DNA of 41,557 bases from a virus: positions 1-41,557 of IMG/VR virus record IMGVR_UViG_3300050498_000076. One strand, written 5' to 3'. This document shows positions 7,413 to 25,651 of this stretch, in pieces (position 1 is the stretch's first letter; the number at the start of each line of letters is the position of its first letter). Below the pieces are notes generated by a model that was not told the DNA's origin, searched no databases, and saw nothing but the letters and a program-made list of their open reading frames with translations. The position numbers and the translations under genes are program-made.

Positions 7413-7429
7413 ATTTTAGTATGCCCGGC

Positions 7430-9313: not shown

Positions 9314-9335
9314 TGCCTGGTTCTCCTTCATCTGA

Positions 9336-9364: not shown

Positions 9365-9389
9365 GGTCGCCGATCCCAAAATTCAGGGA

Positions 9390-9418
9390 TTGAATTTTGA
9401 CGGCTCCGGGCGTATACT
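9390..9418 (+). promoter_or_regulatory. Plus-strand sigma70-type promoter TTGAAT-17-TATACT
   Basis: Read directly from the sequence. It is back-to-back with, and divergent from, the 9336..9364 promoter, with the two -35 boxes 25 bp apart. Confidence 0.5.
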
Positions 9419-9424
9419 ATTCTC

Positions 9425-9928: not shown

Positions 9929-9936
9929 GCTACTCC

Positions 9937-12900
9937 TTATTGGATTGGTCCGGCTGCTGCCGGTTGTTGGTAAAGCATCGCCGGTACTACCTGTGCGTCG
10001 AGCCAGGTCTGGAAGTCACCGTATGGTTGTCCTTCCTTGAGCCACACCTGCTGCATGGCGAGGGTGGCGCCTTTGCCTAGCTTCTTGCCGGTCGCTGCGT
10101 AAAGCACCACGAACTGTTCGAGCCCATCCGGCCACGTGCTCGTGTCGACCTGCTTGAATACTTTTCCCTGTAGGATCGGCTTGAGCACTGGGTACTTCTT
10201 ATAATACTCCAGGTCCCTCCACTTCCAGTAAGCGTCCAGCTTGGGGAACTTCAACAGGTAGGCTGCTCGGTCGCTCTTGGCCAGGGAGTAGTATCCCTGC
10301 TCCAGCATATAGTATTCCGGGAACTTCTCCCGGCGCTGCGTGTAAAACGAATCGGTGATCGCCGTGACTGATGGATCGTAAAGGTTCAGGGCTGGCTGCT
10401 GTGCCTGGGGGACGTCGATGATCGGTGCGGTCTGTTCGGTGCGTGGGATCATGGTGCCGAGCATCTGTGCCCACTGGGTTAGCGTTTCCACTGGGATGGA
10501 TTCCATGTCGCGTGTCTCGGTGTCCAGGAAGGATCGTTGGAACTCATCGCCGAGTTGTGCGGTCGCTGCCTTGCGGTTGGTGTCGCCGAGTGCCATGTAT
10601 GCATCCCAAATGTTGCCGATCATAAACGATCGCAGCCGGTCCTGGGGCTCTTTGCCTTTCGCCAGGTATGCTTCGTACTCCGGGTGGTCATCGAAGAATT
10701 GATTGATCGCATCCTTGTCACCGTTGTCGGCTTTCTTCCAGGCTTCGTTCCATTCACCTTTCAAGCCTCGGTACTCCAGCTCTCCTGCCGGTAGCAGCTG
10801 GCTGCCGAAGAGTGATGGCAGGAATGCCTGGGTGCCTGCGATCGCTCCTTCATGTGTGGCTGCGTAGATGGTTCCGGCGAGTGGGGTCTTCATCGCCAGC
10901 TCCATCTTGACCCGTTGTCGGGCCTGTTCGAAGAGTTCACCCTGGCGCTCGATCATGGTGGTCTGTGCCTGGTCGCTGGTGATCAATCCTTCCGCTACCA
11001 TGTTGGCGAGTTGCCGGTCGATGTAGTAATTGCCGTACTCACCGAACTCTGGCAGGTTCAGCTTCTTCCTTGCCCATTGCTCTGGCTTCCCTGCGAGCCC
11101 GATCAGCTGACCGATCGGCTCTGCCCACGTCCCTTGGGTCACGGTTTCGATTGCTCGTGCCGTGTTGGTCAGTGGTAGGTTGGTGACCTTGTTGCGATCT
11201 CCCTTGGAGATGCCTGGCACTTCAATGCCCATCATATTGAGGGGTGTGCTCAGGTACCAGGCTGGTCCGAACATCGTCGCCATAAAGTCAAACGGGTTAC
11301 TGATCTCGGCTTCCCGGCGCTGCGCTGCTTCTGCCGAGGCTCGCTCCCATAGGGCTCCGCTCTGGCTGGCTGCAGCTGCGGCGACCTGGTCCTGTTGAGC
11401 AGATCCGTCCGCTGCCATCTCCTGCAGGATGCGCTCCGTTTCTATCACCTGCATGTTCTTGTCACGGCGCATGGCTTCAATGGGCCGCAGGAAGTTTGCC
11501 GGTGCGAAGAGCATCTGCATTGGATCAATGTATAAGGCGTCGCCCATCCAGTCTGGCATCCAGGGTGCGGCGATCTTGAACTTCCCTCGCAGGCGCTCCG
11601 AGATATCCCGCTCGTGCTTGTCCTGCATGTTCCTGATGCGTGCGTAGTTGGCATACCAGGTCGGCTTGTCGAGCCCTCGCATTGCCCAGGTCAGCAGGCT
11701 CCTGGTGTAATAGAACTCGTAAGGCGCCACCGATTCCAGGTGCCTATCAAACCCATACCGGCGCTGGTAGTTGAGCATGGCGAAGTCTCGCTGGCTCTCA
11801 CCCCATTTGATCGTTGAGTTCTTGACGGCTCCCATGTCGCTCTGGACCTGGCTCACGTAATCTCTCAGCATCTTCTGGCCTGCCGGGCTCACGTCCTTCA
11901 TGGCTCCGTCGAGTGGTCGCTCGGTCTGCAGCTTGTTGATCGCCACATCCTGCATGGCATCGAGCAAGGGTTGGACGTGGTTGCGGTAGCCTTCATCCAT
12001 CCATTCACTGTCTGCTCGGAAGCTGCTGGCGTTGTCCATCGTTCCGAGTGGCGCCTCGCCGACCAGCCTGACGGATGGTGGCATGGTGTCTCGTTGACCT
12101 TTGGGTGGGCGTTGTCCGGTTTCGATCCTGCGCTGCTTGTCTGCATATAGCTGGACGTCTGCAGCTGCCAGGTCTTCGCCGATCCCATAGCTTACGGAGA
12201 AGCCTGTTCGCTTCTTTCCACCGATCTCAAACTCAAGCTCTGCGACCTGGCGATCGATCGCGGCGAGTGCATCCTTGGCAGTTGCTTCGTCCGGGAACCA
12301 ATAGACAAACTCGTCGCCACCTTTACGGAAGGCTCTGCCTCCCACTCGCTCGATCTCAGTCTTGGCTACTCTGCCGATGCCGGTGATGATCTGATCACCA
12401 GCCTCGTGTCCGAAGGTGTTGTTGATCGCCGTCAGTCCATTCAGGTCGCTGGTGGCTTCGAGCCATCCGTCTGGCTTGGAGTCTATGCCGAGTGCGACGA
12501 CGGTTTCCAGTCCGCTGAGTGGGTCGGTCAGGGTCTTGTTGAGTAGCCAGTCACGTGCCTCGGTTCGCTCGGTGGCATCCAGCTTATCCCAAATCTCACG
12601 CAGCCTGGCTGCTGCAGTGTTCCTGCGATCGGCGCTCTGCTGCAGTGCTTCTCTCCCTTCGAATTGATAGAGCGTGCTCTGCTCGCCGGTCGCTTCCCTG
12701 ATCTGTTTCATGAGTTGCCGGAAGCCGGTGGGCGATGCGTCACCTTGCAGGCTCAGGCTGGTGCCGTCCGGTCGGCGGATGTCCACGTGTAGTTGGTGGT
12801 TGACGTCGTTCCCGATCGATCGCCGCAGCAGCCTGGTCTGTGCTTCGGTCAAGGGTCCGCCGATCTGCAGGGATGTCTCTTTGTAGTCAGCGGATAGTCG

Positions 12901-15900
12901 GATCGCCTTTGCTTCGTTGACGAACTTATCAATGGCTGGTGCGTAGACGTCGGTGGTTTCCAGGTCTGCCTGGTCGAACTGGTCCGGCCACAGCTCGGCG
13001 ATCTCTGCGTGGTATCGCATGTCGTCACTGGTCCGGTTGAAGTCCAGCATGCGCCCATCGGCAAGGATGAACCCGGCGTCTTCAAAGACCGGAGTTAATC
13101 CGAAGGCTTTGATCGCCTGGCTCACTGTTTGTGCATTGCCTTGGGTCATCGTGTGCGTGTCGTCGAGCACGTTCAGCTCGATGCTCCTGGGCATCCTGCC
13201 GGTGGTCTTGTATCTATCGAATGCCGGTTCGGTCAAGACGGCGATGGCGTCATATCCCTGTGCCTGGGCTGCCTTCTTCATCTTGGCGTCCAATGCGAAG
13301 CGATCATCGATTGAGTTGATCATGTCGGGCGGCTCGATGCCGAGTGTCTGCATAATCGTGATCTCGTCGCCGACCAGCGGGTTGCTCACGTTCACGTCGA
13401 ACGGTTCGTCGATCGGTCTTCCATAGAACTCCGCCTCTGCGTAGCTCGATGCATAAAAGGTGCCGCGTTCCTGGATGGCTTCGGCGCCTGGCAGTGCGGT
13501 CCGGTACCACTTCCTGTGGTTGATATGATCGATCATCTCCGGCTCTGCTCGTTGGAAGAGTGGTTGCCCTTCCATCACTGACTTCTTCATTGCCGGTGTG
13601 ACGTCGATGCTGTGGACCCGGTTGCCTTCTGAACTATAAAAGTTGACCAGCTTCTTGGTTTGTTCGGTGCCTCGCAGTCCAGGTGTTACGTAGGATGAGT
13701 CCAGGAAGCCACCATCTTCGACGAAGTCCGCTTGCTTCCGCAGCAGGTCGCTCATCACTTCGTCCGGCTCCATCTCTGCTGCCCTGCGTAAGACGTCCGG
13801 TGTCACTAATGCATGGCGTTCCGGTAGGTCGAGCAGCTCCGGGGTCCCCACTGTAGTCTCTCCGACTTGGGCTCCCCATTTCTTTCCGTACTTATCTGCC
13901 CAGGCCGGAAGCATCTTATCGTAAAAGCCCTTCATGCCTTCGCCACCGACTTCCAGGTCGGCGTCTCTCCATTCGTTGGATGTGTCTGGTGACTCTGTGA
14001 TCTTGGTTGCCAGGTCCTTGCCTACGATTTCTTCCACCTGCTCCGGTGTCAACCCTTGCCGGTCGAGCAGTGTCTGATCCTGCTTGATCGCTTCGATGTT
14101 GTATGTGCCGTCCGGCTTTCTCCAGGATGCGATGTAATCCACTTGCTTCGATAGATTGTATCGCTCTGCCTGCTGCTTGCCGGTGGTCCATGCCACTCGC
14201 TCGTATCCTTCTTCGGCTGCCATGCGCAGGATGCGCTTCATCACCAGCTCGTGCCAGGTCTTTTGGAAGGGTGCCTGGCTGATCGGTCCCGTTTCCGGCA
14301 GTGCTTCCATCTTAACTTTCTCAGCATCCCATTGCCGGTAGATTTCCTGAGCCCTTGCCTGGTCGTCGAGGATGTCCTGTGGGTACTGCATGGCTGCATT
14401 GAAGTCTTCGTATGATCCAGCGTTCTCTCGCTTGATCAGGAAGGCTTGCTTCTTATCGGTGCCCTCGTATAAGAGTGTGCCGTCCCTCGCTCTGATCCAC
14501 GTGGTCTTGGCTTCGTCGGTCTTGTTCCACTCCATGATGCGGTACGCGAGGTCCTTCTCTATGTTGAAATAATCCAGACCGAGTTGATCAACTTGCGCCT
14601 TCTGAGCCTGCCGAGCCCGGTCGATCTCCGGGTCCCGGTATCCCTTCTGCCTGCCTGCCTGGTGCCAGTCGCTCTGGATTTCCTCCACCATGAGCACCCG
14701 CTTCCCATCGGCATCGACGCGGTCCGTCAGCCTGGTGTGTGCCAGCACGTTGGGTTCTTCCCAGTGGCTGCTCTTGTATAAGACTTCGCCACCTGGACGC
14801 TCGTTGCGTGCCAGGGATTCCAGTGCCATCGTCCGGGCTTCTGTTTCGGTGTCACCTATTCCGAGCAGCTCTCCGTTGTAGTGCACTCTCCAGTCTTCTG
14901 GTCCATACTGCCTGGGTGCTGCCAGTGCGGGTAGCTCGGTCGGTGCTTTGATTGGTGGGGTCGGCATCGTGTATAAAATCTCCCGGTAGTTCTCTCCGCC
15001 TGGCAGGGTGTAGTTCTGGTACTTTGTAGCACCGCCTGTGCGGTTTCTCGTTGCCTCCTCGACGTGGAAGTTCCAGGTCGTTCCGTAGATTCTGCTCATG
15101 TCATTGGCGTAGCGCCGGGCTCTTTCCGGCATCGATCCTAGTCCGTATACCTTCCCATCCAGGTCTGTGAAGATTTGCCGCATGGGATCGTCTGGATCGG
15201 TGTCGTGTGTGAAGCCCTGTTCTTCCAGGGCTTGCTTATATAGCTGCCACCCACTGTCGGTTTCGAGTTTCTCCCAGGTCCGCTCGGCGATCTCCTGCAT
15301 GTCGATATCGGTGCTGCCCTTGCCCTTCTTTACTTCTTTGATATCGATCCGGTGGGTGTTCAGGACGTCCATCACTTCGGCTTTGGTGATCTTGCCGGTC
15401 CTGGTCTTGAGTAGATCGTCGAGCCCACTCCACTTCATCTCATCGGCTCTGATGCCTGCCTTCTGTAGCACTCCCTTCAGCTGGTCGATGGTCATCACTT
15501 CCTGGCGCCAGGCTGTGATGGTCTGCTCGGCTTTGGTGTACCAGATGTTGCCGATGCCGACTTGCTCCAGCATCTCCGGGGATGGTGGGGTTCCCTGGCG
15601 CAGCTCTGCCAGGTGCATCTCTGTTCGTGCTGCGATCTCGCTGGTCACGTCGATCGGCTTCTTATAGGAAGCTCGTGGGTCTTCGGCGCCGAGCATTCTA
15701 TCAAAGGCTGCCTTGACTTCTGGTGCGATCTTGACGTCGATGGCGCTGCCGGTGATCACCTTATAGATGCCGAGCATCCAGTCCCGCATGGCTTCGAAGG
15801 CTTTGCGCAGCGCCGGTGTGGGTGCCTTGCCTTCTGTGATGTAGCGTTCGAACGCACGTGCGTACTTCTCCTCGGCTGCTCGGTGCCAGACTCCGTCTCT

Positions 15901-18900
15901 GACTCCTGCCCATTGTTCAATCACCTGCAGGTCCGCACGCACCTGCTCGTTCCCCGTTCGTGCGACCACGTCTGTCATCACTCGCCGATAAATGTGGGCG
16001 TTCTCGTGGATCACGGTGCTGACGTCTGCTCGCTCGAACGCCAGGATGGTTGCCTTGATCCCGTCTGGTCCAAACTGGACGGCTCCCTTTGGTGCTGCTC
16101 CCATGTCCTGGAATTGGAACTCATCGATCGCTCGCTGCATACTAGGGATCGCCTTCGATGGTTCGTTGCTCTCGAATACTTTCTTGGCGATCTGTGCGAT
16201 CTTGTTGATGCCGCTCGGTGTTGCCAGGGCTCGGTCACTCACCAGGCTTTCGCCGTTGGCATCCCGGATATCAAACGTGATCATGTCGGATGGGTGGTCC
16301 TTCAGGATTTGCCTGATTACCTTCAGCTGTGCGGCTGTAGGGACCGTGTTGACCAGGTCGATGTTGGTTTCGTCTGGCGATACCCACCAGTGCACCGATC
16401 CTGTTTCGTTGGCGAACTCGTCCCCTCGATAGGCGCCTTCTCCGGGTCCCATTACTTCGGCGATCACGCCATGTTCTTCGAGTGCGATCAGCTTGCCTTC
16501 CGGTGTCAGCCAGAGTGCCGTCAGCGGACTATTTGGATCGTACTCGGTTGCTCCGAAGGTTTCGATTGCTCGCTTCGTCCAGTCGGTGCGCTTCGTCGGC
16601 TTATAAGATGCCCTGGCTTCTTCCAGCCAGGTCTGGTAGTAAGCGTCCGGGTCCCGCTGGAAGAGTAGGTCGATGTTCTGCCTGGCGACGGCTTCTGCCA
16701 TCTTCGGGTCCAGCTTGTAAACTGCATCGATGATCTGGCGCCTGGCGCCGAGGGTGCTCTCTGCCTGCAGTGCGTGACCCACGTGCTTGGCTCCCTGGCG
16801 GACCAGGGCTTGTGCGTAGAAGCTGGTTTCGTCTGACGTCAGGGATCGGTTGATGGGTTGTATCTGGAAGAGTGGTTGCCCTTCCATCACTGCCTGCCGC
16901 ATCTCCGGGGTCACGTCCAGGCTGTGGACCGTTCCCGCCTCTTGTGTTAGTTGCACCGGCTCGACCGTCCCATTGAACCACTCGGCCTTCTTGGCGGCTT
17001 CTCTCCTGGATGTGTAGGTCTGGACTTCCCCTTCCCAATCCACATAGCTCCCGTCGCTCCGTCGCACTCGATAGGCTTCCACTGTTTTGGTCAGCTGCGT
17101 GCCGGAGACTTGGGCTCCCCATTTCTTCGCGTACTTATTGACCCAGGATGGCAGCATCTGATCATAGAAACCCTTCATGCCTTCGCCGCCGACCTTCAGG
17201 TTCTCTCCTTCCCATCGGTGGGTCGCTGCTTGGGAATGATCTGCTGCGACGATCTTCTCCGCCAGGTCTTTGCCGATCGTGTCGGCGAGTTGCTCAGGTG
17301 TAAGCCCTTCCCGGTTCAGCAGGGTTTGTCTGCCCTTGACCGCGTCGATGTTATATGTTCCGTCCGGGTTCATACTTGAATCGATGTGGTCGACTTGCTT
17401 CGCCAGGTTGTATCGATCTGCTTGCTGCTCGCCGGTGGTCCATGCCACCCGGTCGTATCCCTCATCGGCTGCCTTGCGTAGGATGCGCTTCATCACCATC
17501 TCGTGCCAGGTCTTTTGGAAGGGTGCTGGTTCTACTCCGCTGGTGCCCTTCTGCAGTTCATCTAGTCGTGCCTGGGCGACCTGCTCCGCTTGCTCGGATG
17601 CTTGCCTTGCTGCATTGTAGCGAGCCTCCTCATCGGCATCCAGTTCATATCTCCAGGCGAGTTGGCGTCCCTGCTCATCTCGATACTTCTTCTCGAACTC
17701 ACCCATCAAATCCATGTAGGAGTTGTTCTCCGGCAGTTCTTCCCATCCGTTGTTTGCCTGGTCCTGCAGGAAGTTCAGCTCTGCCTGCTCGTCCACGGAT
17801 AGCTCTCGCTTGTATCCCTTCTGCCGACCTGCCTGGTGCCAGTCGCTTTGGATTTCTTCCACCATGAGCACGCGTTTCCCATCGGCATCGACGCGATCCG
17901 TCAGCCTGGTGTGTGCCAGCACGTTGGGTTCATCCCAGTGGCTGGATTGATACTTGGCTGGTGGGTTTGCCCTGTAGTGTTCGAGTGCTGATGCGTGTGC
18001 ATCCATCGGCGTGGGACCGGCGCCGACTACCTGGTCCCCATCCCAGTATTGATAGACCTGCCTGCCGTTGAGCATGGTCTGCTTCATTGTCGTGGTCGCT
18101 GGCAGTGTGTCTGGTCGTTTGCCTGGCATCGTGAAGAGCACTTCCTGGTAGTTGGTGTGGTCGCCTGGCAGGGTGTAGCTGTGGTATTTGGTGGGCGAAT
18201 CACTCTCTCGCCTGCTCTGCGTTTGGTACCGATACTCCCGCTCCAGGGTCATCTCCATCTTGACAGCTGTCCGCTGTATGTCCCCTGGTGGCATCTCGTC
18301 GCTGGTGATGATGTCGCCTTCTGCCTTCGCATCGTGCCATCCGAACTGCAGGCTGCCTTCGTCGTCGACGAACGCATCCAGTTCATACCCTTTCCGACTC
18401 ATGCGTGCCGCCTGGGTTCTCCATCCATGCTGCTCGTTCAGGTTGTCGAATGCCGCATCTATAACCACGTCCGGGTCCGGCTCGTTTCCTCCGCCTTTGA
18501 CGATCTCAGTCATCTCCATGCGGTTGGCGTCGAGCACTTCCTGCACTTCGGCTTTGGTGATCTTGCCGGTGCGCTCTGCCAGGAAGTCATTGAGCCCGGT
18601 CCACTGCATCTCCTCGGCCTTGATGCCTGCCTTCTGCAGCATGCCGCGCAGCTGGTCGACGGTCATTGTCTCTTGTCTGATCGCCGTGATCGCTTGCTCA
18701 GATTTGGTGTACCACACAGGTGCCTCTCCTGTTTGTTTCAGCAGCCCTTCATCGCTGGCTGCTTTGCGGATGTCTTCATAATACCTGGCGTAGAAGTTTG
18801 CCTGGTCTTCGCCGGTGACGTTGGAGTACCAGGTTGCGACGGCATCGCTGATGGTCATGTATGCTTCTGCCTGCTCGACCGGCAGTCCCATCTCCTGGAT

Positions 18901-21900
18901 GATCTTCTCCTTGAGCAGCTGCTTGGTCATGGCTGCGTTGCCTGCTGTGTCCGCCTGCTCTTGTGCGATCTCAGCTCGAGCCTGGGCTTCGGCGATCGTG
19001 CGGTTGCGTTCGTTGGCTTCCACTCGGGCCGCAGCTTCATCGGCGATGTTGCTGATGTGCTCGTTCCACGTGGTGCCATCATGCCTGGTTGCGTTCCCGA
19101 TCTCCGGGGGAAGCTCTCCCATCGTTTCATACATAGTCGCCAGGTCCCCTCGGTCAACCGCGGAGTTCAGTCTCTGCTCCCAGGCTGCCAGCTCGAACGC
19201 ACCGCCGTCGCCGGTGGTAGGATCTGCGGCTTCTTCTGCAGCGACCTTCTCGTAGTGGATGGCTGCGTCCCGCTCGATCGCCGGGTCGTAGTTGTGTCCC
19301 ATCGGGTAGATGTTCTCTCCGCTCCGGGCTCGCTGGATCATGGCTGTCAGCTGTGCCACTCCGCCGAGGTCGGTTGGGTTGTCGAGGTCGATCGGGTATC
19401 CGTCGTCGGCCAGCATCCTTGCCATCTCATCGATGCCGATCCCCTGCCTGGTAAATGCTCCGGGCATCCCACGTGGGTTGGGATCGCCGGTCAAGTCACG
19501 GGCCAGCGCCAGGGAGATTCCGCCGTGATTGCGGACGGCTCTGAGTAGCTTGGTGTTGTTGTCGATCGTGCGGTCGTTGCGTGATCGCCTGCCGGTGCCG
19601 GTGTCGACGGCTCGCTCTGCAGCTGCGGTTGCTTCGATGTCCTTCAGTTCGTTTCGCCTGGTCAGGATGCTGCTGATCCGCTCTGGTGTCAGGCGTGGGT
19701 CATCGAGCCCGGTCAAGTCCGGGATGCCGCCGTATGCTTCCTTCTTCAGGGCTCCTATCAAAGCGAACCGATCCTGCAGCACGTTGCGATCGTAGGGCAA
19801 TCCTACCCGGTTGAACTGCTCGGCTGCATCCCATACTGTGCTGACTCTGGTGGCTCGCTCTGCCTGCTCCTGTGCCTGGCGCTGCTCCGCTTCGGCGATC
19901 AGCTGGTTGCGTTCTTCTTCCAGGGTGGGCACGTCCCTGCGTTGTTCTTCGAGCCTGGTCAAGTTCTCAGCCTGGACGTTCTCCCTTGTGGGCCGGGTGG
20001 TCTGCTGGTACTCGCCTCGCAGCTGGTCGATCATCCCTTCGGCTGATGGTGCGGGTCCTGGTCCTGGCTGCGTGGGTCCACTGGGTAGTGCTGCTGTGCC
20101 GGTGGGTCCGGTGCCGCGTCGAACGATTCGCTCCAGTCGGCGGATGCCTTCCATGTTGATCCGTTCCAGCTCTGCGATCTGTGCGACCTTCTCTTGTCCA
20201 TAGTATTTGTACTTGGCTTGGGCTCTCTGGTCTTTGGTCATCCCCTCGAGAGACTTTCGGAACTTCCGTTCCCTGCTCACGATCTCATCGCTGAATCGGT
20301 TGGCGTCCTTCCACCATTTGCGTGCTGCTTCACCGGCTGCCGGTCCATGCATGTCGGTGTAGATGGTGGTCAGGCTCTCGCCGATGCGAGCGTCGTTGGC
20401 TTTCTTTGCTTCGAAGGCTTGGGAGAACCTGGTGTCGATCTCCTTCTGCAGCTCTGCCCAGGCTTTGTTGCTCTCGATGCTTCCTGCTCGATCGCCGGTG
20501 TACGTCTCGAAGAACGATCGGCGCTGCTCCCGCATGAAGCTGTAGGCGTCGCTCATCACCCGGTCGTTCTCTGCGATCGCAGCCAGCAGTCCACGTGCGG
20601 ACGGGTCGTTGCTCTTTCCCCAGGCTTCGAAGATGCCGAGGTAATTGGCGGCTGTGCGTGCGTTGATCCGCCTGAACTCCTCGCTGCTGATTCGGTAGGC
20701 TTCCTCGATGGCTCTGTTCTTAAGTGCCGTGTCCGGGACGTCTGCCAGGTCCTGGAAGATTTCGCCGAACCTATAGTAATGATCGAGCCAGGCGTCGGTG
20801 TATTTGCTGTTGACCTGCATGACCGTGTCGAGTGCGGCTGGTGCTCCTTCGAGTTCGACCTTGTTGGTCACGTTCTCTGCCATCGCTCGCAGGTCCCTGG
20901 CGGTCTGCATGTCGTTGTAATCCCTGGCGTGTTGGGCTGCCATCTTGAACGCACCACGGACCTGGTCCGGGGTCTGTGCCTTGGTCAGCGCATGATCTAA
21001 CGCGTCCAGCACACCGACCTTCTCCAGGAGTGTGGCTGCCTGGCTGGATGGGATGCCTACCTTCTGTGCGGCTTCGTTGATCAGCGTGCGGCTCATCATT
21101 CCCTGCTGCCTGCCAAAGATGAAGCGATCGATCTCCGGCTTGTTCATTCCGGCTTCTATCAAAGAGTAGATGGTGTTGGGGTTGATCCCTGCCTGCTCCA
21201 CCTGAGTGCGCAGCTGTGGGCTCATCTCCTGGAAGCCTACGCCTCGGCGCCAGGTCTTCGCCCATATATCTTTCATGGCGATCATGGTGCCGTGTTTGCT
21301 TTCGGTGCTCTCGAACCAGCTGCTGACTTTATTGAACGGCATTGCCTTGCCGATGTTGCTGACGATCCTTTGGGCTGCTCCGAGTGGTCCCCGTTGGTCC
21401 CCGCGTATAGCCATATCGATCGCCGATGTCTGGACACTCCCTCGTGTGGGTGCCATGTCCACTGCTCCGCCGATTCCCACTCCTTCTGATAAACGTGCAG
21501 GCTCCACTCCGAAGCGGGTCAGCCAGCTGTCGATCTGGTGTGGTGTCATGTACCCATAGATTCCGGTGGCGGCTCTGTGGACCATGTTGCTCAGTCCGTT
21601 CTGCAGTGCGTAGCCTGGGCTGCCGCCAAGCAGTAACACTGACTGTGCGCTCTTGAGTAGATGGGTCGTGCGGAAGAATGCTTTGCTCTCTGGCGTGTCC
21701 TTCCCTAAGCCTAACCGCTCGGCGGTCCACTCATCGAAGTGTGATCCGAGTGCATCCATCAGGCTGGCTTTCCATTGGTCCGGGTGCCAGTGCAGTGCTC
21801 CGGTGCCGGTGAACGCACCGACGATGTCTTGCAAGTGATCGGCTGTAAATCGACCAGCTTCGATCTCTCGCAGCAGATCCGCTCCGTCTTCACCGGCTGC

Positions 21901-24024
21901 CTGCAGTCGTTGGGTCAGGCGCTGCATGTCCTGGTCGGGTGTGCCTCGCTTCGCCAGGTCTTCTATCAACTTGCCAGGGTCTTCCCCTAGCACGTTTGAT
22001 ATCCGCATGAGCATGTCTCGCTTGGGTGCCGTCAGGTCCCATGCCTGGATCAATCCGTCCAGCTTCTCGATCTTGAAGTCCTTGAGGGCTGGCAGGATGG
22101 TGTACCACTCCGGGGATGCGGCTACCTTCCCGGCCATCTCTGACCAGAGTTTCATGTCGCCGTTGCTGACCGATCGGATCATCTTGCCGATCTCGTGCGG
22201 GTCTGCCATCGATGAGAGCAGCGTTCCGATGTTGTTGTAAAACATCGAGGCGCCTTCTCTTGCTCGGCTCTCTGGTGTGAGTGCTGCCCAGTCTTCCTTC
22301 AGCTTGCTCAAGAGTCCGGTTCGCTTGGCTGGTACGTCGAGCAGTCCGGTGTCGGTAAGTGGTCCGGCTTTGATCTGGTTCTTGCTGTTGATGCCTGCGA
22401 TCCACCGGCTGACGGGTCCCATCTGTTCGTATGAAAAGCCTGGCGCCACGTCGCCGGTCTGGACCAGGGTCTTGTATCTGCGTGCCGCTTCGAAGGGTGC
22501 GTTGGTTTCCATGAACGCACGTGCGGCTGTCTCGTTGCCCATCACCTTGGCGATGGAGAAGTTGATGGTGTTGGTGGCTTCCGGTAGCAGCTCCAGTGGA
22601 TCGATCGCTGCCTGCCCTGCAAAGTCGGCGATCTGTGCTCCGACGTACTGGCTGTGCTCGCCGAGCAGCTGGCGGACTACCACTCGTGGGTCTTCCCCTT
22701 TGATGATCGCATCGTGGATCGTGAGCCTGGCTTCTCTCAATAGCTCCGCGCTGTCGGTGACTCTGTATCGGTTCCCTGTGATCGGATTGATGGCGGTTGC
22801 CGTTGCCCTTTCTACTGGGGCGGCCTGTCCGAGGATGAAGTCTTCTCCTCCTTGTGCGAATTGGATGTTCTCCCGCTTCGCCACTGCCTTGATGTCTTCG
22901 ATCGATCTCACCCCTTGGGTGTCGCTCACTGCCATGATCAGTGCGATCGCTGGTATCCAGTTGCGTGCGCCCAGGAAATCTGACACCTCGTACGTTAGTC
23001 TGCCTGCTTCCCATGTCGCTTTGCGTGTCGCTTCATCCGTCAGCATTCGCTTGGCTGCTTCGGCTGCTTGCTCGTTGCCCTGCATCCCTGCGATCGCTGC
23101 GTCGAGGTATTGTGTTGCAAATCCCGCCGATTGCTCGGCTCCTTCAGACAGCTTATTAAGAACCGCCATCATACCTGCTGCGGTCGTGGGTTGATCAAGC
23201 ACTCCGCCTGTCGGGTCGTACTCTTGTCCGCCGATCAGGCCGAGCCCGTATCCCGCAGCTGCTCCTACTATGCGTCCAGGCACTCCAAAGATTCCACCGG
23301 CGTGCGCTCCTGCGAGTGCCATCGGGGATGCCATGATCTTTGGGTTGCTCATCAACTCGTAGTAGGTCTTCTGCCACTTAGGGACCCGGCTCCAGTTGAA
23401 GTTGGGGTCCTTCAGTATTTGATCTCGTGTCTCTACTGGGTATGCCGTGATATCAAACTGAGGGTTCTGCAGCAGCACCTTTCGTTGCTCGGTGCTCATG
23501 TCATCCCAGGCTGCTTCTCCCTGCTGCACTGCTTTGGGTGGTGCGAACGGTGACGCCTCGCCTGGTGGCTGCGCCTCCGGTGGTCCTTGTAAACTCTCCA
23601 GGTATGCGAGTGCTGGATCATCTCCGGGCAGGTACTTCCAGTCGGTCGGTGGTTTGCCGCCGTTGCGGAAGCTGTGCCAGTTGTATGCCTGCTCGATTGC
23701 CTTCTCTTGTCCCTGCATCCACGTCGGCAGGCTGATGTCCTTGGGCGTCGCTTTCAGGATCGCATATGCGTCGGCGACCTGGCGTGGGTCTTGACCGAAG
23801 TTCGGTGCGTATCCTAGCTGCCGTTCGAGTGCCTTCTTCGGACTGATGTAATTCTTTTGCATGTCCGGGGTCAGGCTGTTGTAATAATTGGCGTAGTGCT
23901 GCTGGTAATACTCGCTCGGCTTGACGTCTGGTGGATTGCGAATGTCGATCGGCACCGGCTTGGGTTGCTGGATCGTCACTGTCTGCTGCGGGATGTTCTT
24001 GGGTGGCTTCTTGATTGGAGGCAT
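9937..24024 (-). CDS. Giant multidomain ('polyvalent'-type) virion/ejection protein candidate (4,695 aa) containing a GGDEF domain, an HExxH motif and an internal module duplication
   Basis: Uninterrupted 14,088-nt track ORF with ATG at 24024. It follows portal and small internal-protein-like genes. Domain evidence is listed under separate features. Confidence 0.9.
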   Translation of the reverse strand: MPPIKKPPKNIPQQTVTIQQPKPVPIDIRNPPDVKPSEYYQQHYANYYNSLTPDMQKNYISPKKALERQLGYAPNFGQDPRQVADAYAILKATPKDISLPTWMQGQEKAIEQAYNWHSFRNGGKPPTDWKYLPGDDPALAYLESLQGPPEAQPPGEASPFAPPKAVQQGEAAWDDMSTEQRKVLLQNPQFDITAYPVETRDQILKDPNFNWSRVPKWQKTYYELMSNPKIMASPMALAGAHAGGIFGVPGRIVGAAAGYGLGLIGGQEYDPTGGVLDQPTTAAGMMAVLNKLSEGAEQSAGFATQYLDAAIAGMQGNEQAAEAAKRMLTDEATRKATWEAGRLTYEVSDFLGARNWIPAIALIMAVSDTQGVRSIEDIKAVAKRENIQFAQGGEDFILGQAAPVERATATAINPITGNRYRVTDSAELLREARLTIHDAIIKGEDPRVVVRQLLGEHSQYVGAQIADFAGQAAIDPLELLPEATNTINFSIAKVMGNETAARAFMETNAPFEAARRYKTLVQTGDVAPGFSYEQMGPVSRWIAGINSKNQIKAGPLTDTGLLDVPAKRTGLLSKLKEDWAALTPESRAREGASMFYNNIGTLLSSMADPHEIGKMIRSVSNGDMKLWSEMAGKVAASPEWYTILPALKDFKIEKLDGLIQAWDLTAPKRDMLMRISNVLGEDPGKLIEDLAKRGTPDQDMQRLTQRLQAAGEDGADLLREIEAGRFTADHLQDIVGAFTGTGALHWHPDQWKASLMDALGSHFDEWTAERLGLGKDTPESKAFFRTTHLLKSAQSVLLLGGSPGYALQNGLSNMVHRAATGIYGYMTPHQIDSWLTRFGVEPARLSEGVGIGGAVDMAPTRGSVQTSAIDMAIRGDQRGPLGAAQRIVSNIGKAMPFNKVSSWFESTESKHGTMIAMKDIWAKTWRRGVGFQEMSPQLRTQVEQAGINPNTIYSLIEAGMNKPEIDRFIFGRQQGMMSRTLINEAAQKVGIPSSQAATLLEKVGVLDALDHALTKAQTPDQVRGAFKMAAQHARDYNDMQTARDLRAMAENVTNKVELEGAPAALDTVMQVNSKYTDAWLDHYYRFGEIFQDLADVPDTALKNRAIEEAYRISSEEFRRINARTAANYLGIFEAWGKSNDPSARGLLAAIAENDRVMSDAYSFMREQRRSFFETYTGDRAGSIESNKAWAELQKEIDTRFSQAFEAKKANDARIGESLTTIYTDMHGPAAGEAARKWWKDANRFSDEIVSRERKFRKSLEGMTKDQRAQAKYKYYGQEKVAQIAELERINMEGIRRLERIVRRGTGPTGTAALPSGPTQPGPGPAPSAEGMIDQLRGEYQQTTRPTRENVQAENLTRLEEQRRDVPTLEEERNQLIAEAEQRQAQEQAERATRVSTVWDAAEQFNRVGLPYDRNVLQDRFALIGALKKEAYGGIPDLTGLDDPRLTPERISSILTRRNELKDIEATAAAERAVDTGTGRRSRNDRTIDNNTKLLRAVRNHGGISLALARDLTGDPNPRGMPGAFTRQGIGIDEMARMLADDGYPIDLDNPTDLGGVAQLTAMIQRARSGENIYPMGHNYDPAIERDAAIHYEKVAAEEAADPTTGDGGAFELAAWEQRLNSAVDRGDLATMYETMGELPPEIGNATRHDGTTWNEHISNIADEAAARVEANERNRTIAEAQARAEIAQEQADTAGNAAMTKQLLKEKIIQEMGLPVEQAEAYMTISDAVATWYSNVTGEDQANFYARYYEDIRKAASDEGLLKQTGEAPVWYTKSEQAITAIRQETMTVDQLRGMLQKAGIKAEEMQWTGLNDFLAERTGKITKAEVQEVLDANRMEMTEIVKGGGNEPDPDVVIDAAFDNLNEQHGWRTQAARMSRKGYELDAFVDDEGSLQFGWHDAKAEGDIITSDEMPPGDIQRTAVKMEMTLEREYRYQTQSRRESDSPTKYHSYTLPGDHTNYQEVLFTMPGKRPDTLPATTTMKQTMLNGRQVYQYWDGDQVVGAGPTPMDAHASALEHYRANPPAKYQSSHWDEPNVLAHTRLTDRVDADGKRVLMVEEIQSDWHQAGRQKGYKRELSVDEQAELNFLQDQANNGWEELPENNSYMDLMGEFEKKYRDEQGRQLAWRYELDADEEARYNAARQASEQAEQVAQARLDELQKGTSGVEPAPFQKTWHEMVMKRILRKAADEGYDRVAWTTGEQQADRYNLAKQVDHIDSSMNPDGTYNIDAVKGRQTLLNREGLTPEQLADTIGKDLAEKIVAADHSQAATHRWEGENLKVGGEGMKGFYDQMLPSWVNKYAKKWGAQVSGTQLTKTVEAYRVRRSDGSYVDWEGEVQTYTSRREAAKKAEWFNGTVEPVQLTQEAGTVHSLDVTPEMRQAVMEGQPLFQIQPINRSLTSDETSFYAQALVRQGAKHVGHALQAESTLGARRQIIDAVYKLDPKMAEAVARQNIDLLFQRDPDAYYQTWLEEARASYKPTKRTDWTKRAIETFGATEYDPNSPLTALWLTPEGKLIALEEHGVIAEVMGPGEGAYRGDEFANETGSVHWWVSPDETNIDLVNTVPTAAQLKVIRQILKDHPSDMITFDIRDANGESLVSDRALATPSGINKIAQIAKKVFESNEPSKAIPSMQRAIDEFQFQDMGAAPKGAVQFGPDGIKATILAFERADVSTVIHENAHIYRRVMTDVVARTGNEQVRADLQVIEQWAGVRDGVWHRAAEEKYARAFERYITEGKAPTPALRKAFEAMRDWMLGIYKVITGSAIDVKIAPEVKAAFDRMLGAEDPRASYKKPIDVTSEIAARTEMHLAELRQGTPPSPEMLEQVGIGNIWYTKAEQTITAWRQEVMTIDQLKGVLQKAGIRADEMKWSGLDDLLKTRTGKITKAEVMDVLNTHRIDIKEVKKGKGSTDIDMQEIAERTWEKLETDSGWQLYKQALEEQGFTHDTDPDDPMRQIFTDLDGKVYGLGSMPERARRYANDMSRIYGTTWNFHVEEATRNRTGGATKYQNYTLPGGENYREILYTMPTPPIKAPTELPALAAPRQYGPEDWRVHYNGELLGIGDTETEARTMALESLARNERPGGEVLYKSSHWEEPNVLAHTRLTDRVDADGKRVLMVEEIQSDWHQAGRQKGYRDPEIDRARQAQKAQVDQLGLDYFNIEKDLAYRIMEWNKTDEAKTTWIRARDGTLLYEGTDKKQAFLIKRENAGSYEDFNAAMQYPQDILDDQARAQEIYRQWDAEKVKMEALPETGPISQAPFQKTWHELVMKRILRMAAEEGYERVAWTTGKQQAERYNLSKQVDYIASWRKPDGTYNIEAIKQDQTLLDRQGLTPEQVEEIVGKDLATKITESPDTSNEWRDADLEVGGEGMKGFYDKMLPAWADKYGKKWGAQVGETTVGTPELLDLPERHALVTPDVLRRAAEMEPDEVMSDLLRKQADFVEDGGFLDSSYVTPGLRGTEQTKKLVNFYSSEGNRVHSIDVTPAMKKSVMEGQPLFQRAEPEMIDHINHRKWYRTALPGAEAIQERGTFYASSYAEAEFYGRPIDEPFDVNVSNPLVGDEITIMQTLGIEPPDMINSIDDRFALDAKMKKAAQAQGYDAIAVLTEPAFDRYKTTGRMPRSIELNVLDDTHTMTQGNAQTVSQAIKAFGLTPVFEDAGFILADGRMLDFNRTSDDMRYHAEIAELWPDQFDQADLETTDVYAPAIDKFVNEAKAIRLSADYKETSLQIGGPLTEAQTRLLRRSIGNDVNHQLHVDIRRPDGTSLSLQGDASPTGFRQLMKQIREATGEQSTLYQFEGREALQQSADRRNTAAARLREIWDKLDATERTEARDWLLNKTLTDPLSGLETVVALGIDSKPDGWLEATSDLNGLTAINNTFGHEAGDQIITGIGRVAKTEIERVGGRAFRKGGDEFVYWFPDEATAKDALAAIDRQVAELEFEIGGKKRTGFSVSYGIGEDLAAADVQLYADKQRRIETGQRPPKGQRDTMPPSVRLVGEAPLGTMDNASSFRADSEWMDEGYRNHVQPLLDAMQDVAINKLQTERPLDGAMKDVSPAGQKMLRDYVSQVQSDMGAVKNSTIKWGESQRDFAMLNYQRRYGFDRHLESVAPYEFYYTRSLLTWAMRGLDKPTWYANYARIRNMQDKHERDISERLRGKFKIAAPWMPDWMGDALYIDPMQMLFAPANFLRPIEAMRRDKNMQVIETERILQEMAADGSAQQDQVAAAAASQSGALWERASAEAAQRREAEISNPFDFMATMFGPAWYLSTPLNMMGIEVPGISKGDRNKVTNLPLTNTARAIETVTQGTWAEPIGQLIGLAGKPEQWARKKLNLPEFGEYGNYYIDRQLANMVAEGLITSDQAQTTMIERQGELFEQARQRVKMELAMKTPLAGTIYAATHEGAIAGTQAFLPSLFGSQLLPAGELEYRGLKGEWNEAWKKADNGDKDAINQFFDDHPEYEAYLAKGKEPQDRLRSFMIGNIWDAYMALGDTNRKAATAQLGDEFQRSFLDTETRDMESIPVETLTQWAQMLGTMIPRTEQTAPIIDVPQAQQPALNLYDPSVTAITDSFYTQRREKFPEYYMLEQGYYSLAKSDRAAYLLKFPKLDAYWKWRDLEYYKKYPVLKPILQGKVFKQVDTSTWPDGLEQFVVLYAATGKKLGKGATLAMQQVWLKEGQPYGDFQTWLDAQVVPAMLYQQPAAAGPIQ
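12125..12525 (-). other. GGDEF (diguanylate-cyclase-type) domain-coding segment of the giant gene (about aa 3834-3967)
   Basis: The translation reads SDLNGLTAINNTFGHEAGDQIITGIGRV...GGRAFRKGGDEFVYWF. GGDEF itself is encoded at 12307..12321. The metal-binding Asp, the N of INN and the D of GD (PleD N335/D344 equivalents, aligned by eye) are present. No RxxD I-site precedes GGDEF. Confidence 0.8.
13555..15560 (-). repeat. Internal module copy A of the giant gene (about aa 2822-3490)
   Basis: Paralogous to 16860..18740. The two share WYTK(S/A)EQ..I.., a 40-aa identical block (EPNVLAHTRLTDRVDADGKRVLMVEEIQSDWHQAGRQKGY), APFQKTWHE.VMKRILR, GGEGMKGFYD.MLP and VMEGQPLFQ. Confidence 0.75.
15994..16008 (-). 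other. HExxH (HENAH) zincin-like motif in the inter-module segment of the giant gene
   Basis: The translation reads STVIHENAHIYRRVM (aa 2673-2677). This is a motif only; the fold is not verified. Confidence 0.35.
16860..18740 (-). repeat. Internal module copy B of the giant gene (about aa 1762-2389)
   Basis: See copy A. The 134-nt stretches 14638..14771 and 17812..17945 differ at about 8 positions by my count. Confidence 0.75.
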
Positions 24025-24192
24025 GTTGATATCCTATCGTCATTCCTGGTGGTGGTGGCCATGGCTCTGTTGGTCCCTACCGCCAGTTACGGTGGTGGTG
24101 CACTGGCATCGCCGTTCCTGGTGGTAGGTGCCGGCCACTCTCGCCGGTTCTGGTGGTGCGGGATCTCATCGTCGTATGTGGTGGTGCTCAGT
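24025..24192 (-). repeat. Leader of the giant gene: about 5 degenerate ~28-43-nt units with a CACCACCA core (minus sense)
   Basis: Minus-sense units include CACCACCAcatacgacgatg, CACCACCAgaaccggcgag, tACCACCAggaacggcgatg, CACCACCACCgtaactggcgg and CCACCACCACCAggaatgacgata. The last ends 13 nt before the ATG. Confidence 0.5.
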
Positions 24193-24957
24193 TCACTCGC
24201 CGTAGTTCCATGAGTTGAGCCCAAGGTAAAAGTTGGGATTGTTCGGCTGGTAGCCATAGCCACCACCCCACCCACCGCCACCGCCTTTGGGCTTCCACTT
24301 CCCTCCCCAGTTCGATCCGTACGATGATCCGAAGCCCATTGGCTCGGTCAGCGATTCCAATACCGGGAAGTAGGGTTGCCCGACGTTGACCCCTCCACTG
24401 CCTGATAAGAATGACCCGGTGGGATAAACTGCCGGGTTGGTCGGTGGTTGATAGATCGATCCGTCGTTCATGATCGTGCCGCCTCCGCCGATAACTGATC
24501 CGGTCGGGATTGGTTGTGTGGGTGCCATCCCCGGATATTGTCCGGGTTGAAGCAGGTCTGCGTACCAGGGTGTTGCGGGTCCAGTTCCTTGCCAGCCACC
24601 ACCACCGGCTGGCTGGTGATCCTTGGGGCGTTTCTTCTTCACCGGCACTCCAGCTGGTACGACTGCTGGTGCGTTGGTCGGCGTGTAGGTCGGCAGGTTC
24701 AGCGAAGGTGATGGGTTGTAGCTTCCACCGTAGGCTGGTCCGGGTGGGTGCTGCCACCACTGCAGCGATTGCCCTGTGCCGTAGTGACCCTTCTTGCCGA
24801 TCGGCTGCTGCCTGATTCGTTTGTTCGTGCTGCTGCTGTTCAGTGGTGGTGTTGGTTTGTTTCGTACTCCAGGAGGCATTGGTATCTCCAGTGTGCTCAC
24901 GGCTATCAGTATGGCTGCGAGCAACAATAAAAAGATTGGGTCGAGTTTCTTTCTCAT
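24193..24957 (-). CDS. Signal-anchored Gly/Pro/aromatic-rich low-complexity protein (254 aa from ATG 24957)
   Basis: The track ORF runs 24193..25044. The internal ATG at 24957 gives ATGA coupling and starts MRKKLDPIFLLLLAAILIAVS (a hydrophobic signal/anchor). The C-terminus reads WGGKWKPKGGGGGWGGGYGYQPNNPNFY. Confidence 0.62.
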   Translation of the reverse strand: MRKKLDPIFLLLLAAILIAVSTLEIPMPPGVRNKPTPPLNSSSTNKRIRQQPIGKKGHYGTGQSLQWWQHPPGPAYGGSYNPSPSLNLPTYTPTNAPAVVPAGVPVKKKRPKDHQPAGGGGWQGTGPATPWYADLLQPGQYPGMAPTQPIPTGSVIGGGGTIMNDGSIYQPPTNPAVYPTGSFLSGSGGVNVGQPYFPVLESLTEPMGFGSSYGSNWGGKWKPKGGGGGWGGGYGYQPNNPNFYLGLNSWNYGE

Positions 24958-25163
24958 GTTTGGATCATCTCCATGATCTTGGCGTAGGTCTTTGGTAGTT
25001 GTTGTTTCACCATCTCTTTCTGGTCTGGCGGCATGGTCATCCATCTCAATGCCAGCGCACTGACCATCATCGGCGCCGCCAGGTCCTGTTTGAATTCTTC
25101 GACGATCTCCATTGCGATCGCCTGCACTTCCAGCTTGATATCGGTTAGGTCGAGGTCGCTCAT
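24954..25163 (-). CDS. Small hypothetical protein (69 aa)
   Basis: This is the C-terminal part of track ORF 24954..25439. ATG 25163 forms ATGA overlaps with both neighbours. The upstream part of the track ORF is off-frame over the 163-aa gene. Confidence 0.6.
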   Translation of the reverse strand: MSDLDLTDIKLEVQAIAMEIVEEFKQDLAAPMMVSALALRWMTMPPDQKEMVKQQLPKTYAKIMEMIQT

Positions 25164-25651
25164 TGTGCGGCTCCTGACTTGAGTGGTGGTATGCGATTCG
25201 ATTCGAGCAGCTGCCTGGTCACTTCTTCTCGCCGAGCCATCAGCTGTGTCATCTCTGTCTGGCTCGCCTGCAGGTTGACGATGATCGTGTTCATCTGGCC
25301 TAGCTGCTCCTTCAGTGTTTCGTTGATCGGCACTCGCTTTGCCAGGTCCCGCATGGTGTCCAGCTGCGTGGTCGCCGACGTGAGTTGTGCGTCCCGCTCC
25401 TTCAGTCGATCCTGCATCTGCTCCACGTGCCGCTGGCATTCGACGTTGGCTCTCTGGAGTGCGACGTTCTCCTGGTAGAGTTCATCGTTCCGGTCTTGCA
25501 GCTTCTTCAGTGAGTCTGTGAACTTAGTGATCGCATCGGCATCGGCTGCTCCGCTCTGTGACTTGGCCAGCCTGCGTGCGTTCAGCCAGCTCATGGCGCC
25601 GCCGATAAATGTGAGCACTCCAATGATTAGGGTTACGGTCGATGGGTCCAT
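25160..25651 (-). CDS. N-terminal TM plus coiled-coil protein (163 aa; internal virion or envelope-acting candidate)
   Basis: Track ORF with a hydrophobic N-terminus (VTLIIGVLTFIGGAMSWL) followed by heptad-like Q/E/L-rich sequence. Confidence 0.68.
   Translation of the reverse strand: MDPSTVTLIIGVLTFIGGAMSWLNARRLAKSQSGAADADAITKFTDSLKKLQDRNDELYQENVALQRANVECQRHVEQMQDRLKERDAQLTSATTQLDTMRDLAKRVPINETLKEQLGQMNTIIVNLQASQTEMTQLMARREEVTRQLLESNRIPPLKSGAAQ

Follow-up and report, generated by a model that had tools for sequence, protein, structure and literature searches.

Background

Phage polyvalent proteins are giant chains that join unrelated effector-type domains, 2-15 to a polypeptide, in combinatorial architectures and are encoded beside virion genes; phage members in that position are predicted to be packaged and injected, their domains are linked to anchors such as MuF, portal, DarA/DarB or N4-RNAP, and the MPTase domain found among them has been proposed as a processing hub (PMC5512222). 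One prophage polyvalent protein has already been recorded with a GGDEF domain (Iyer et al. 2017, PMC5512222). Here we describe a protein of 4,695 residues (the giant, in what follows) encoded by the virus record IMGVR_UViG_3300050498_000076 of IMG/VR, which was analysed over its whole length of 41,557 nucleotides (the window). It is likely, at a probability that we put at about 0.68, that the giant is a phage-type polyvalent protein built on a chassis of two cores that has no name in the libraries searched, and that it is packaged and ejected, its cargo acting in the host.

Other systems offer points of comparison. The podophage internal proteins gp14, gp15 and gp16 of T7 and gp7, gp20 and gp16 of P22 are helical, have hydrophobic membrane-inserting segments and are ejected via the narrow channel of the portal partly unfolded, to refold afterwards; the mass of the T7 internal core is quoted as ~1.5 MDa (PMC8954989). 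The virion RNA polymerase (vRNAP) of N4, gp50, is a giant podophage protein of 3,500 aa that is packaged and injected, with terminal regions for injection and encapsidation (PMC5512222). In SPP1 gp7, Mu gpF and the MuF-fused toxins, a head-resident carrier is fused to variable effectors (PMC5576092). Finally, the 2,052-aa protein Bbp10 of phage BPP-1 and its homologues in phages such as Xanthomonas CP2 and Pseudomonas AF are large proteins of the structural gene cassette. The giant resembles each of these in some respects and departs from each in others.

Results and discussion

A single reading frame in a complete genome

The giant is encoded by one open reading frame (ORF) on the minus strand (9937..24024; 14,088 nt, 4,695 codons) with a single stop codon at its end, and has a predicted mass of 526 kDa and a pI of 5.2. 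Its ATG is preceded, at a distance of 7 nt, by a Shine-Dalgarno-like AGGA motif. The two ends of the window (1-32 and 41526-41557) are an exact 32-nt repeat, from which it follows that the record holds a complete, circularly permuted assembly, 41,525 bp in length. The ORF takes up 33.9% of this genome, in agreement with the initial annotation, made from the sequence alone, which had described an uninterrupted frame occupying about one third of it.

A frame of this size from a metagenomic source could be a chimera, or a set of genes fused by sequencing errors, and in one related locus the giant is indeed in four pieces. That locus is L046 (ENA ERZ25039503 contig_156369, 3527-13313, on 43.3 kb), where pieces of 1,881, 78, 183 and 1,138 aa were called; a long-read assembly with frameshift errors probably accounts for them, and not a gene that is truly split. 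Against an artefact in the window, a 100% identical protein is present on four contigs from three other samples (JGI 3300009100, ENA ERZ27257732 and ENA ERZ27257649) assembled by two pipelines, and the JGI copy of the gene differs from that of the window at only 2 nt, both third codon positions and both synonymous. Moreover, more than 100 relatives of 2,000-5,564 aa share the order of the cores, and the copies of a module duplicated within the giant have diverged at the nucleotide level. As the exact 4,695-aa protein recurs in other samples and in two pipelines, a chimera or frameshift artefact is excluded for practical purposes, and its probability is negligible.

Two conserved cores enclose a variable middle

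Related contigs were found by scanning IMG/VR with the C-terminal, N-terminal and module parts of the giant, and their giant ORFs were then aligned to that of the window. Judged by these alignments, the protein is made of three parts: an N-terminal core (N-core, aa ~145-1460, 19645..23592), a variable cargo of ~2,500 aa, and a C-terminal core (C-core, aa 3976-4695, 9940..12099). All segments of the giant, here and below, lie on the minus strand. The initial annotation had set apart a C-terminal region of ~730 aa, and ~720 aa of it prove to be a domain conserved across the family. The N-core is 45-61% identical in loci L008, L011 and L012 and 21-31% identical in loci from metagenome-assembled genomes (MAGs) and in MW202608, and it was found in 107 of 111 relatives of at least 2,000 aa.

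An exhaustive profile search with the C-core, clustered at 50% identity, gave at least 1,543 clusters at E <= 1e-3, 692 of them at E <= 1e-30; the details that follow come from 144 listed new representatives. These have a median length of 2,916 aa and a maximum of 5,564 aa, and eight of them equal or exceed 4,695 aa. The size of the giant, which had been called extreme relative to its genome, is therefore no record within the family. In the listed proteins the C-core is found at the C-terminus or close to it, with at most 207 aa beyond it in the 78 relatives that are well delimited. In the same 78 relatives the cores are 16 to 3,511 aa apart (median 1,245); in the giant of the window the distance is ~2,500 aa. 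Near-constant ends and a middle of such variable length indicate a constant product in the cores and an optional cargo between them.

The content of the middle varies as much as its length. The giant of L012 (2,283 aa) consists of the N-core and the C-core with almost no cargo between them, that of L008 (3,014 aa) has kept an HExxH domain and a GGDEF domain and lacks both copies of a ~630-aa module, L046 has a Strawberry-notch-type SNF2 helicase in place of the cargo seen here, and P0127 has an ART-PolyVal domain immediately before the C-core. Of the 144 relatives, 96 have the HExxH domain, 22 the ~630-aa module, 13 the GGDEF domain, four a small duplicated domain and none the segment at aa 3492-3637. 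A Pfam scan of 11 large relatives found ART-PolyVal in four, a Sno-type SNF2 helicase (AAA_34, ResIII, Helicase_C_4) in four, ddrB-ParB in three, and LPD1, LPD5, DUF6908, GGDEF, RadC-JAB and LysM in one each. The comparison with related contigs that the initial annotation had proposed thus separates conserved ends from a swapped middle. Genome size hardly follows these differences: the window has 41.5 kb, L008 40.2 kb, L010/L011 42.4 kb and L046 43.3 kb, with giants of ~2,270-4,695 aa. As genomes stay at 40-43 kb over this range, other genes appear to make way for added cargo.

This combinatorial variation speaks for the suggestion, made from the single sequence, that the giant is a polyvalent protein. 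Several unrelated domains stand in one chain (GGDEF, HExxH...E, two ~630-aa modules, two ~135-aa domains and the cores), in a portal-terminase phage in which the gene is next to virion genes, as shown by the identified large terminase (TerL) and major capsid protein (MCP) and by synteny. The repertoire is also that of phage polyvalent proteins (PMC5512222): the giant itself has the GGDEF domain and a candidate counterpart of the HExxH hub domain, and relatives with the same cores carry ART-PolyVal, ddrB-ParB, LPD1, LPD5 and the SNF2 helicase. It differs in its anchors, which are two unnamed cores of ~1,300 and 720 aa, and in that the cargo lies between two conserved ends and is not appended to one anchor.

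Neither core has a match in Pfam, in function-annotated PHROGs or in the PDB, and outside the GGDEF domain the giant as a whole, searched in full length and as 600-aa tiles at E <= 5, has no match in Pfam or NCBIfam, while PHROGs returned only giants of unknown function. The N-core contains a Gly-zipper-like hydrophobic segment (aa 231-266, 23227..23334; GxxxGxxxG at aa 239 and 250), already pointed out in the initial annotation, which has the highest hydrophobicity in the giant in a Kyte-Doolittle scan and is also seen in the family consensus. Of the 111 full-length relatives, 88 have GxxxGxxxG within their first 600 aa, while 20 have it in a control region. The same scan marks a second hydrophobic segment at aa 347-375 (22900..22986). 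The long helical stretches that had been predicted are seen in AlphaFold2 (AF2) models of the C-core and of the ~630-aa module, where they form a hairpin.

The family reaches well beyond the source of the window. Relatives on MAG contigs were binned as Chloroflexi, Anaerolineaceae, Dehalococcoidia, Paludibacter, WWE3, Bacillota and a gammaproteobacterium. In two long bacterial contigs, L052 (JACRBI010000004.1, 248 kb, Chloroflexi MAG) and L056 (JBDKSE010000012.1, 238 kb, Anaerolineaceae MAG), a giant is embedded with capsid and tail genes in the same synteny, which suggests that these two are integrated prophages and that the host range reaches Chloroflexi.

The gene belongs to the head-morphogenesis block

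All convincingly identified genes of the window are on the minus strand. In the order of transcription, a ParB-fused DNA methylase and a 183-aa ORF are followed by TerL (27934..29352, identified by family match), a portal candidate of 572 aa (26214..27932), an HD-GYP phosphodiesterase, a 163-aa protein with a transmembrane (TM) helix and a coiled coil, a 69-aa ORF that is called in other assemblies, a TM and Gly-rich protein of 254/283 aa, and the giant; then come small ORFs and a Dam-like methylase, the scaffold candidate (209 aa, 6674..7303), the MCP (5652..6623) and proteins of 118, 259, 883 and 153 aa. The MCP matches phrog_212 (E = 7e-28) and scores 25.5 bits with Pfam GP7, just below the gathering cut-off of 27 bits. 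The scaffold candidate, which precedes the capsid gene and has no cysteine, is syntenic in the relatives. The portal candidate has no family or PDB match and is named from its position and its synteny, being 43-56% identical in L008, L011 and L012. The initial annotation had placed the giant after portal and small internal-protein-like genes; this holds for the verified TerL and the syntenic 572-aa ORF, but the identity of the latter as a portal protein is positional only.

One gene order emerges from tblastn searches, namely TerL, portal candidate, giant, (Dam), scaffold, MCP, p118, p259, p883, p153. It is kept, at identities down to ~25%, in IMG/VR loci and in MAG contigs assigned to Chloroflexi, Anaerolineaceae, Dehalococcoidia, Paludibacter and a gammaproteobacterium, and MW202608 has it too. 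This makes the gene for the giant a constant part of the head-morphogenesis block, where it stands after the portal candidate and before the genes for scaffold and capsid. Its position had been likened to that of N4 vRNAP or T7 gp16, which does not stand: the gene for gp50 is downstream of the capsid and tail genes, the genes for the T7 and P22 ejection proteins follow the tail genes, and the giant comes before the scaffold. Its slot, after the portal and before the scaffold, is instead that of SPP1 gp7/MuF. The likeness to MuF proteins lies in this slot and in the union of a carrier with variable effectors. The differences are that PF04233 was not detected in the giant (whole protein and 600-aa tiles, E <= 5), that MuF toxins have one C-terminal toxin in place of a multi-domain insert, and that here the portal candidate and the giant are not adjacent, three to four small genes lying between them.

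The small genes just 5' of the giant, apart from the HD-GYP gene, occupy 24193..25651. The 163-aa protein (25160-25651, minus strand) has weak SMC/Rad50-like matches in addition to its TM helix and coiled coil, and the 254/283-aa protein (24193-25044, minus strand) has an N-terminal TM helix, a low-complexity tail rich in Gly, Pro, Tyr and Asn, and no cysteine. Both could be accessory ejection, membrane or lysis proteins.

A gene in this block could also encode a protein of the head interior that remains in the capsid or serves assembly only, for example as a portal-bound core, in DNA spooling or as a scaffold-like protein, with its enzymes acting late in the producing cell. A place flanked by the portal candidate on one side and by scaffold and capsid genes on the other would suit this, as would large cores in which no enzymatic motif is recognisable, the modelled C-core being helical. 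It is harder to reconcile with the cargo of the family: a GTP cyclase, an NAD+-dependent ART domain, an SNF2 helicase and a ParB-type nuclease have substrates in the cytoplasm and are hard to explain unless they are delivered there. The model in the literature for such proteins is likewise injection (PMC5512222). Amino acid composition, examined below, also bears on this alternative.

Cysteine is almost completely excluded

The giant has no cysteine in its 4,695 residues, compared with 64 in 7,561 residues (0.85%) for the other 36 ORFs of the phage (P ~5e-18); read in either of its other two frames, this DNA would give 1.2-3.3%. This extends to the family, whose 144 representatives have 61 cysteines in 406,959 residues and are free of cysteine in 116 cases, and to the stand-alone homologues of the ~630-aa module, 118 of 120 of which have none.

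Ejected proteins of model phages are much the same. Cysteine is absent from gp15 (747 aa) and gp16 (1,318 aa) of T7, with a single one in the 196 aa of gp14; from gp7 (229 aa), gp20 (471 aa) and gp16 (609 aa) of P22; and from gp50 (3,500 aa), gp51 (644 aa) and gp52 (150 aa) of N4. In BPP-1, bbp12 (annotated as internal virion protein) and bbp11 (annotated as endolysin/transglycosylase) have none and bbp10 has one. Other T7 proteins checked mostly have 0.5-2.3%, with gp7.3 and the scaffold gp9 also at zero, and tail, portal and terminase proteins of these same four phages do contain cysteine. We found no report of cysteine exclusion in ejected phage proteins in the searchable literature. Exclusion over thousands of residues is a strong shared signature, one that fits passage through a narrow channel in a partly unfolded state and refolding outside the cytoplasm (PMC8954989).

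For a protein that remains in the head, the scaffolds of T7 and P22 offer a parallel, as they too are free of cysteine. The exclusion seen here, however, spans the cargo and the stand-alone homologues of the module, which points to a constraint of translocation, and together with the cytoplasmic substrates of the cargo it leads us to regard an internal or assembly-only role as unlikely.

Elsewhere in the window, three small ORFs on the minus strand are rich in cysteine (7938-8219, 8 of 93 residues; 33170-33709, 9 of 179; 40380-40724, 4 of 114) and may encode zinc-binding proteins.

A predicted maker and a predicted breaker of cyclic dinucleotides

The one domain of the giant with a clear family assignment is a short GGDEF nucleotide-cyclase domain (aa ~3830-3965, within aa 3791-3975, 12100..12654), which the initial annotation had also recognised. 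It matches Pfam (E = 6e-10), diguanylate cyclases in the PDB (E = 5e-6) and NCBIfam. The GGDEF motif, at aa 3902, the metal-binding Asp and the guanine-binding Asn and Asp are in register, 'SDLNGLTAINNTFGHEAGD' standing opposite 'IDIDKFKNINDTYGHEIGD' of 6zxm, and the domain has no RxxD I-site. Because the metal- and guanine-binding residues are kept and this I-site is absent, the most likely product would be cyclic di-GMP (c-di-GMP).

Directly after the portal candidate, the phage encodes a stand-alone HD-GYP protein of 194 aa (25633-26217, minus strand) with the motifs HDLGK and HHHENYNGSGYP and no cysteine. It matches Pfam HD_5 (E = 3e-29) and an NCBIfam c-di-GMP phosphodiesterase of the NosR family (E = 2e-28), and was not found in any of the relative loci compared. 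On these family matches, the phage would encode both a maker (GGDEF) and a breaker (HD-GYP) of cyclic dinucleotides.

A zincin-like domain common to other structural cassettes

The HExxH-containing segment noticed earlier is a domain at aa 2626-2800 (15625..16149), zincin-like by its motif, with HENAH at aa 2673-2677 and a downstream Glu at aa 2719. H2673, E2674, H2677 and E2719 are 98-99% conserved in 87 family sequences, and in a curated alignment of 20 sequences that includes BPP-1 Bbp10 the H, E, H, E residues and one Trp are invariant. From this pattern, they would be a ligand set of the gluzincin style. The domain has no Pfam MPTase-PolyVal match.

In tblastn searches of phage records its homologues, 33-39% identical, are large proteins of the structural cassettes of BPP-1, Xanthomonas CP2, Pseudomonas AF and others. 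Bbp10 is also nearly free of cysteine, and its gene adjoins those for bbp12, the internal virion protein, and bbp11, the transglycosylase. The likeness is limited to this domain of ~150 aa: the N-core and the C-core were not detected in Bbp10, and the bbp10 gene follows the tail genes.

An HExxH...E domain in 96 of 144 relatives might equally be read as the peptidase of a polyprotein, that is, a fusion of late enzymes kept together for gene economy, which would cut itself into cytoplasmic proteins and never be packaged. The ~630-aa module, which usually is a stand-alone protein of 650-800 aa and in L048 lies by replication and recombination genes, would be consistent with such an origin. The position in the head block is nevertheless invariant across distant relatives, and relatives with only 16-61 aa of cargo keep ~2,200 aa of core, so that the cores are the essential product. 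Nor has the exclusion of cysteine an obvious rationale in ordinary cytoplasmic enzymes, the other proteins of the phage having 0.85%. A polyprotein that stays in the producing cell seems to us quite improbable.

The same domain raises the question of N4, whose gp50 shares with the giant its size, an HExxH segment, the lack of cysteine and a three-part logic. The giant could then be a virion RNA polymerase (RNAP) that has diverged beyond the reach of sequence methods and transcribes early genes after injection. Among the ORFs of the window that were scanned no RNA polymerase was recognised, nor any DNA polymerase or integrase, and most ORFs of the presumed early region (32000-41557; seven of eight tested) have no PHROG match, the two matches of that scan being to the 183-aa ORF and to an ORF of the late region, which would leave room for this role. 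Yet the best BLASTP match to gp50 has E = 0.029 over 62 aa, Pfam, PHROGs, NCBIfam and the PDB yield no RNAP match, no PDB entry, RNAPs included, resembles the AF2 model of the ~630-aa module, which is a confident one, and the minimal relatives have no central domain at all. Moreover, the central part of gp50 is one fixed enzyme where the giant has variable cargo. Homology to N4 vRNAP was therefore rejected, and a polymerase so far diverged is highly improbable. We accordingly keep to the interpretation of the giant as an ejected polyvalent protein, with the HExxH domain as part of its cargo.

Two duplicated units in the cargo

The duplication of a ~630-aa module is borne out: copy A (aa 1761-2387, 16864..18744) and copy B (aa 2818-3491, 13552..15573) are 42% identical (E = 1e-150). 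Exact nucleotide repeats between them do not exceed 35 nt, so that the duplication is old, and recent gene conversion or an assembly repeat was ruled out as its source. The module has at least 846 homologues, mostly stand-alone proteins, some of which are fused to InPase, LPD23 or ParBc. Its many invariant charged or polar residues include (in module numbering) E201, H269, H278, R280, E296, E297, Q299, D301, R444, D528 and K540, and it is probably an enzyme.

The AF2 model of the module (pLDDT 82, pTM 0.70) found nothing significant in the PDB with Foldseek (best E = 0.2). In BFVD it matches 28 segments of very large proteins of uncultured phages, several of them named 'Large polyvalent protein associated domain', 'ART-PolyVal-like' or 'LT_GEWL'. 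Two other candidates were considered. Faint repeated GNAT matches, and one of 48 module homologues matching GNAT Pfam families, had suggested a GNAT-like C-terminal subdomain (motif 'GGEGMKxFYD'), which was not confirmed, as a profile of the subdomain gave nothing against PDB sequences. A Pfam Endonuc-BglII match (E = 0.03-0.16) was dismissed as below the cut-off.

A smaller domain of ~135 aa is also present twice, as copy A (aa ~2486-2625, 16150..16569) and copy B (aa ~3638-3790, 12655..13113). The similarity, between aa ~2534-2619 and ~3698-3778, has a Smith-Waterman score of 72 (z = 9 against shuffles); this second duplication, also claimed by the initial annotation, is real but weak.

The remaining segments of the giant are shared unevenly. 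A Pro-rich N-terminal leader (aa 1-144, 23593..24024) is conserved only in the closest relative, L012. The segment at aa 1461-1760 (18745..19644) is semi-conserved, being common to L006/L008, L007 and L046, with a short match in L011, and present in 20 of the 144 family members; it found nothing significant in the PDB. Segment X, the lineage-specific stretch at aa 3492-3637 (13114..13551), is absent from every locus compared as well as from the 144 relatives, and searched together with small domain B it gave nothing significant in the PDB.

A model for delivery

Packaging in the virion and ejection are inferred here by analogy. The analogy is favoured by the position in the head block, by the homology of the HExxH domain to Bbp10, whose gene adjoins internal-virion genes, and by the exclusion of cysteine. 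One or a few copies of the giant would be built into the procapsid near the portal; at 526 kDa, one to three copies would equal the mass quoted for the internal core of T7. On infection the giant, in a partly unfolded state, might pass down the channel of portal and tail, before the DNA or together with it, as do T7 gp15/gp16, P22 gp7/20/16 and N4 vRNAP. The cores would provide for encapsidation and for passage through the envelope or membrane, in parallel with the two terminal regions of N4 vRNAP and with T7 gp16, which is helical and inserts into membranes.

Once inside, the cargo would act in the host cytoplasm, possibly after self-cleavage, in which the HExxH domain, a putative peptidase of the zincin type, would divide the giant into its working units. 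On entry a cyclic dinucleotide, presumably c-di-GMP, would be made by the GGDEF domain, with disturbance of host signalling or of defences based on nucleotides as the result. The two ~630-aa modules would act as enzymes.

Several findings weigh against this interpretation. No homology was found between the giant and T7 gp15/gp16, the P22 ejection proteins, MuF or N4 vRNAP in Pfam, PHROGs, NCBIfam and PDB sequence searches or in a Foldseek search with the C-core model, and the T7 and P22 systems use three proteins where there is one giant here. The C-core model, all-alpha, is itself only of moderate quality (pLDDT 67.7, pTM 0.44), and its Foldseek matches in the PDB are non-specific helical proteins (best E = 2.6). 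A search for protein homologues with the N-core gave only two proteins. The cores occur in no cultured phage: tblastn against 50,697 phage records returned one uncultured genome only, deposited five times, and MW202608, with a giant of 2,156 aa, is the sole INPHARED genome with the C-core.

The cargo domains have weaknesses of their own. The GGDEF domain is shortened, with positions 39-130 of 161 of the profile aligned and N-terminal helices that appear reduced. A profile of the HExxH domain found nothing in the PDB, so that there is no profile-level link to a solved zincin, and hhalign to the MPTase region of N4 aligned 16 motif columns only, at a probability of 11%. The absence of cysteine is not exclusive to ejected proteins, since cysteine is also absent from the scaffolds of T7 and P22 and from the capsid protein of N4, and with some relatives in MAGs of Chloroflexi, WWE3 and Bacillota, a rationale for cysteine loss that is based on the periplasm may not apply there.

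Other features of the genome

Megablast with the giant ORF and tblastn with the portal candidate found no match in the same 50,697 phage records. A Dam-like methyltransferase of the D12 class (8349-9062, minus strand) lies between the giant and the scaffold gene, a slot that is kept in L006/L008, L012 and L046. Upstream of the terminase are the ParB-fused N6/N4 methylase (29892-31316, minus strand) and, in the position of a small terminase (TerS), the 183-aa ORF (29330-29881, minus strand), which matches phrog_645 ('Rnase E', E = 5e-15) and has no TerS family match.

The spacer of 168 nt upstream of the giant (24025-24192) contains about five copies, on the coding strand, of a CACCACCA-like motif that could be regulatory. 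In other assemblies the 118-aa ORF (933-1289) is followed by a 419-aa gene that is cut at the ends of the locus and appears to run on across the ends of the window.

Implications

The concept of the polyvalent protein is known; what is new is a two-core chassis that is large, widespread, unnamed and absent from cultured phages, with its cargo between the cores. At least ~1,500 clusters of phage proteins of 2,000-5,500 aa have had no name, no Pfam coverage of their conserved parts and no cultured representative, although the family is fixed in the virion gene block of a podophage-like lineage known from metagenomes of soil and groundwater and from the MAGs of several phyla. In the phage described here, one third of a 41.5-kb genome is spent on the gene.

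We would tentatively go further, while thinking it rather more probable that this is wrong, and propose that the family is a widespread 'cargo-carrying ejectosome' in a single polypeptide, in which the cores would build a conduit for DNA and the middle would carry an exchangeable payload for manipulating the host, in this case a GGDEF domain that would raise a cyclic-dinucleotide signal in the host as infection begins and is possibly balanced by the HD-GYP protein. Near-total exclusion of cysteine might then be a general signature of proteins threaded through tails.

If these proteins are injected, their fixed ends and swappable middles would amount to a catalogue of effectors used by phages in the first minute of infection, the uncharacterised ~630-aa module among them, and the two-core design could serve for the delivery of foreign proteins into bacteria. 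Cysteine exclusion, if it holds, would be a cheap and testable predictor of ejected proteins that is also usable in uncultured phages. A GGDEF domain borne in the virion, together with an HD-GYP protein encoded by the same phage, would be a direct example of phage interference with cyclic-dinucleotide signalling at the time of entry.

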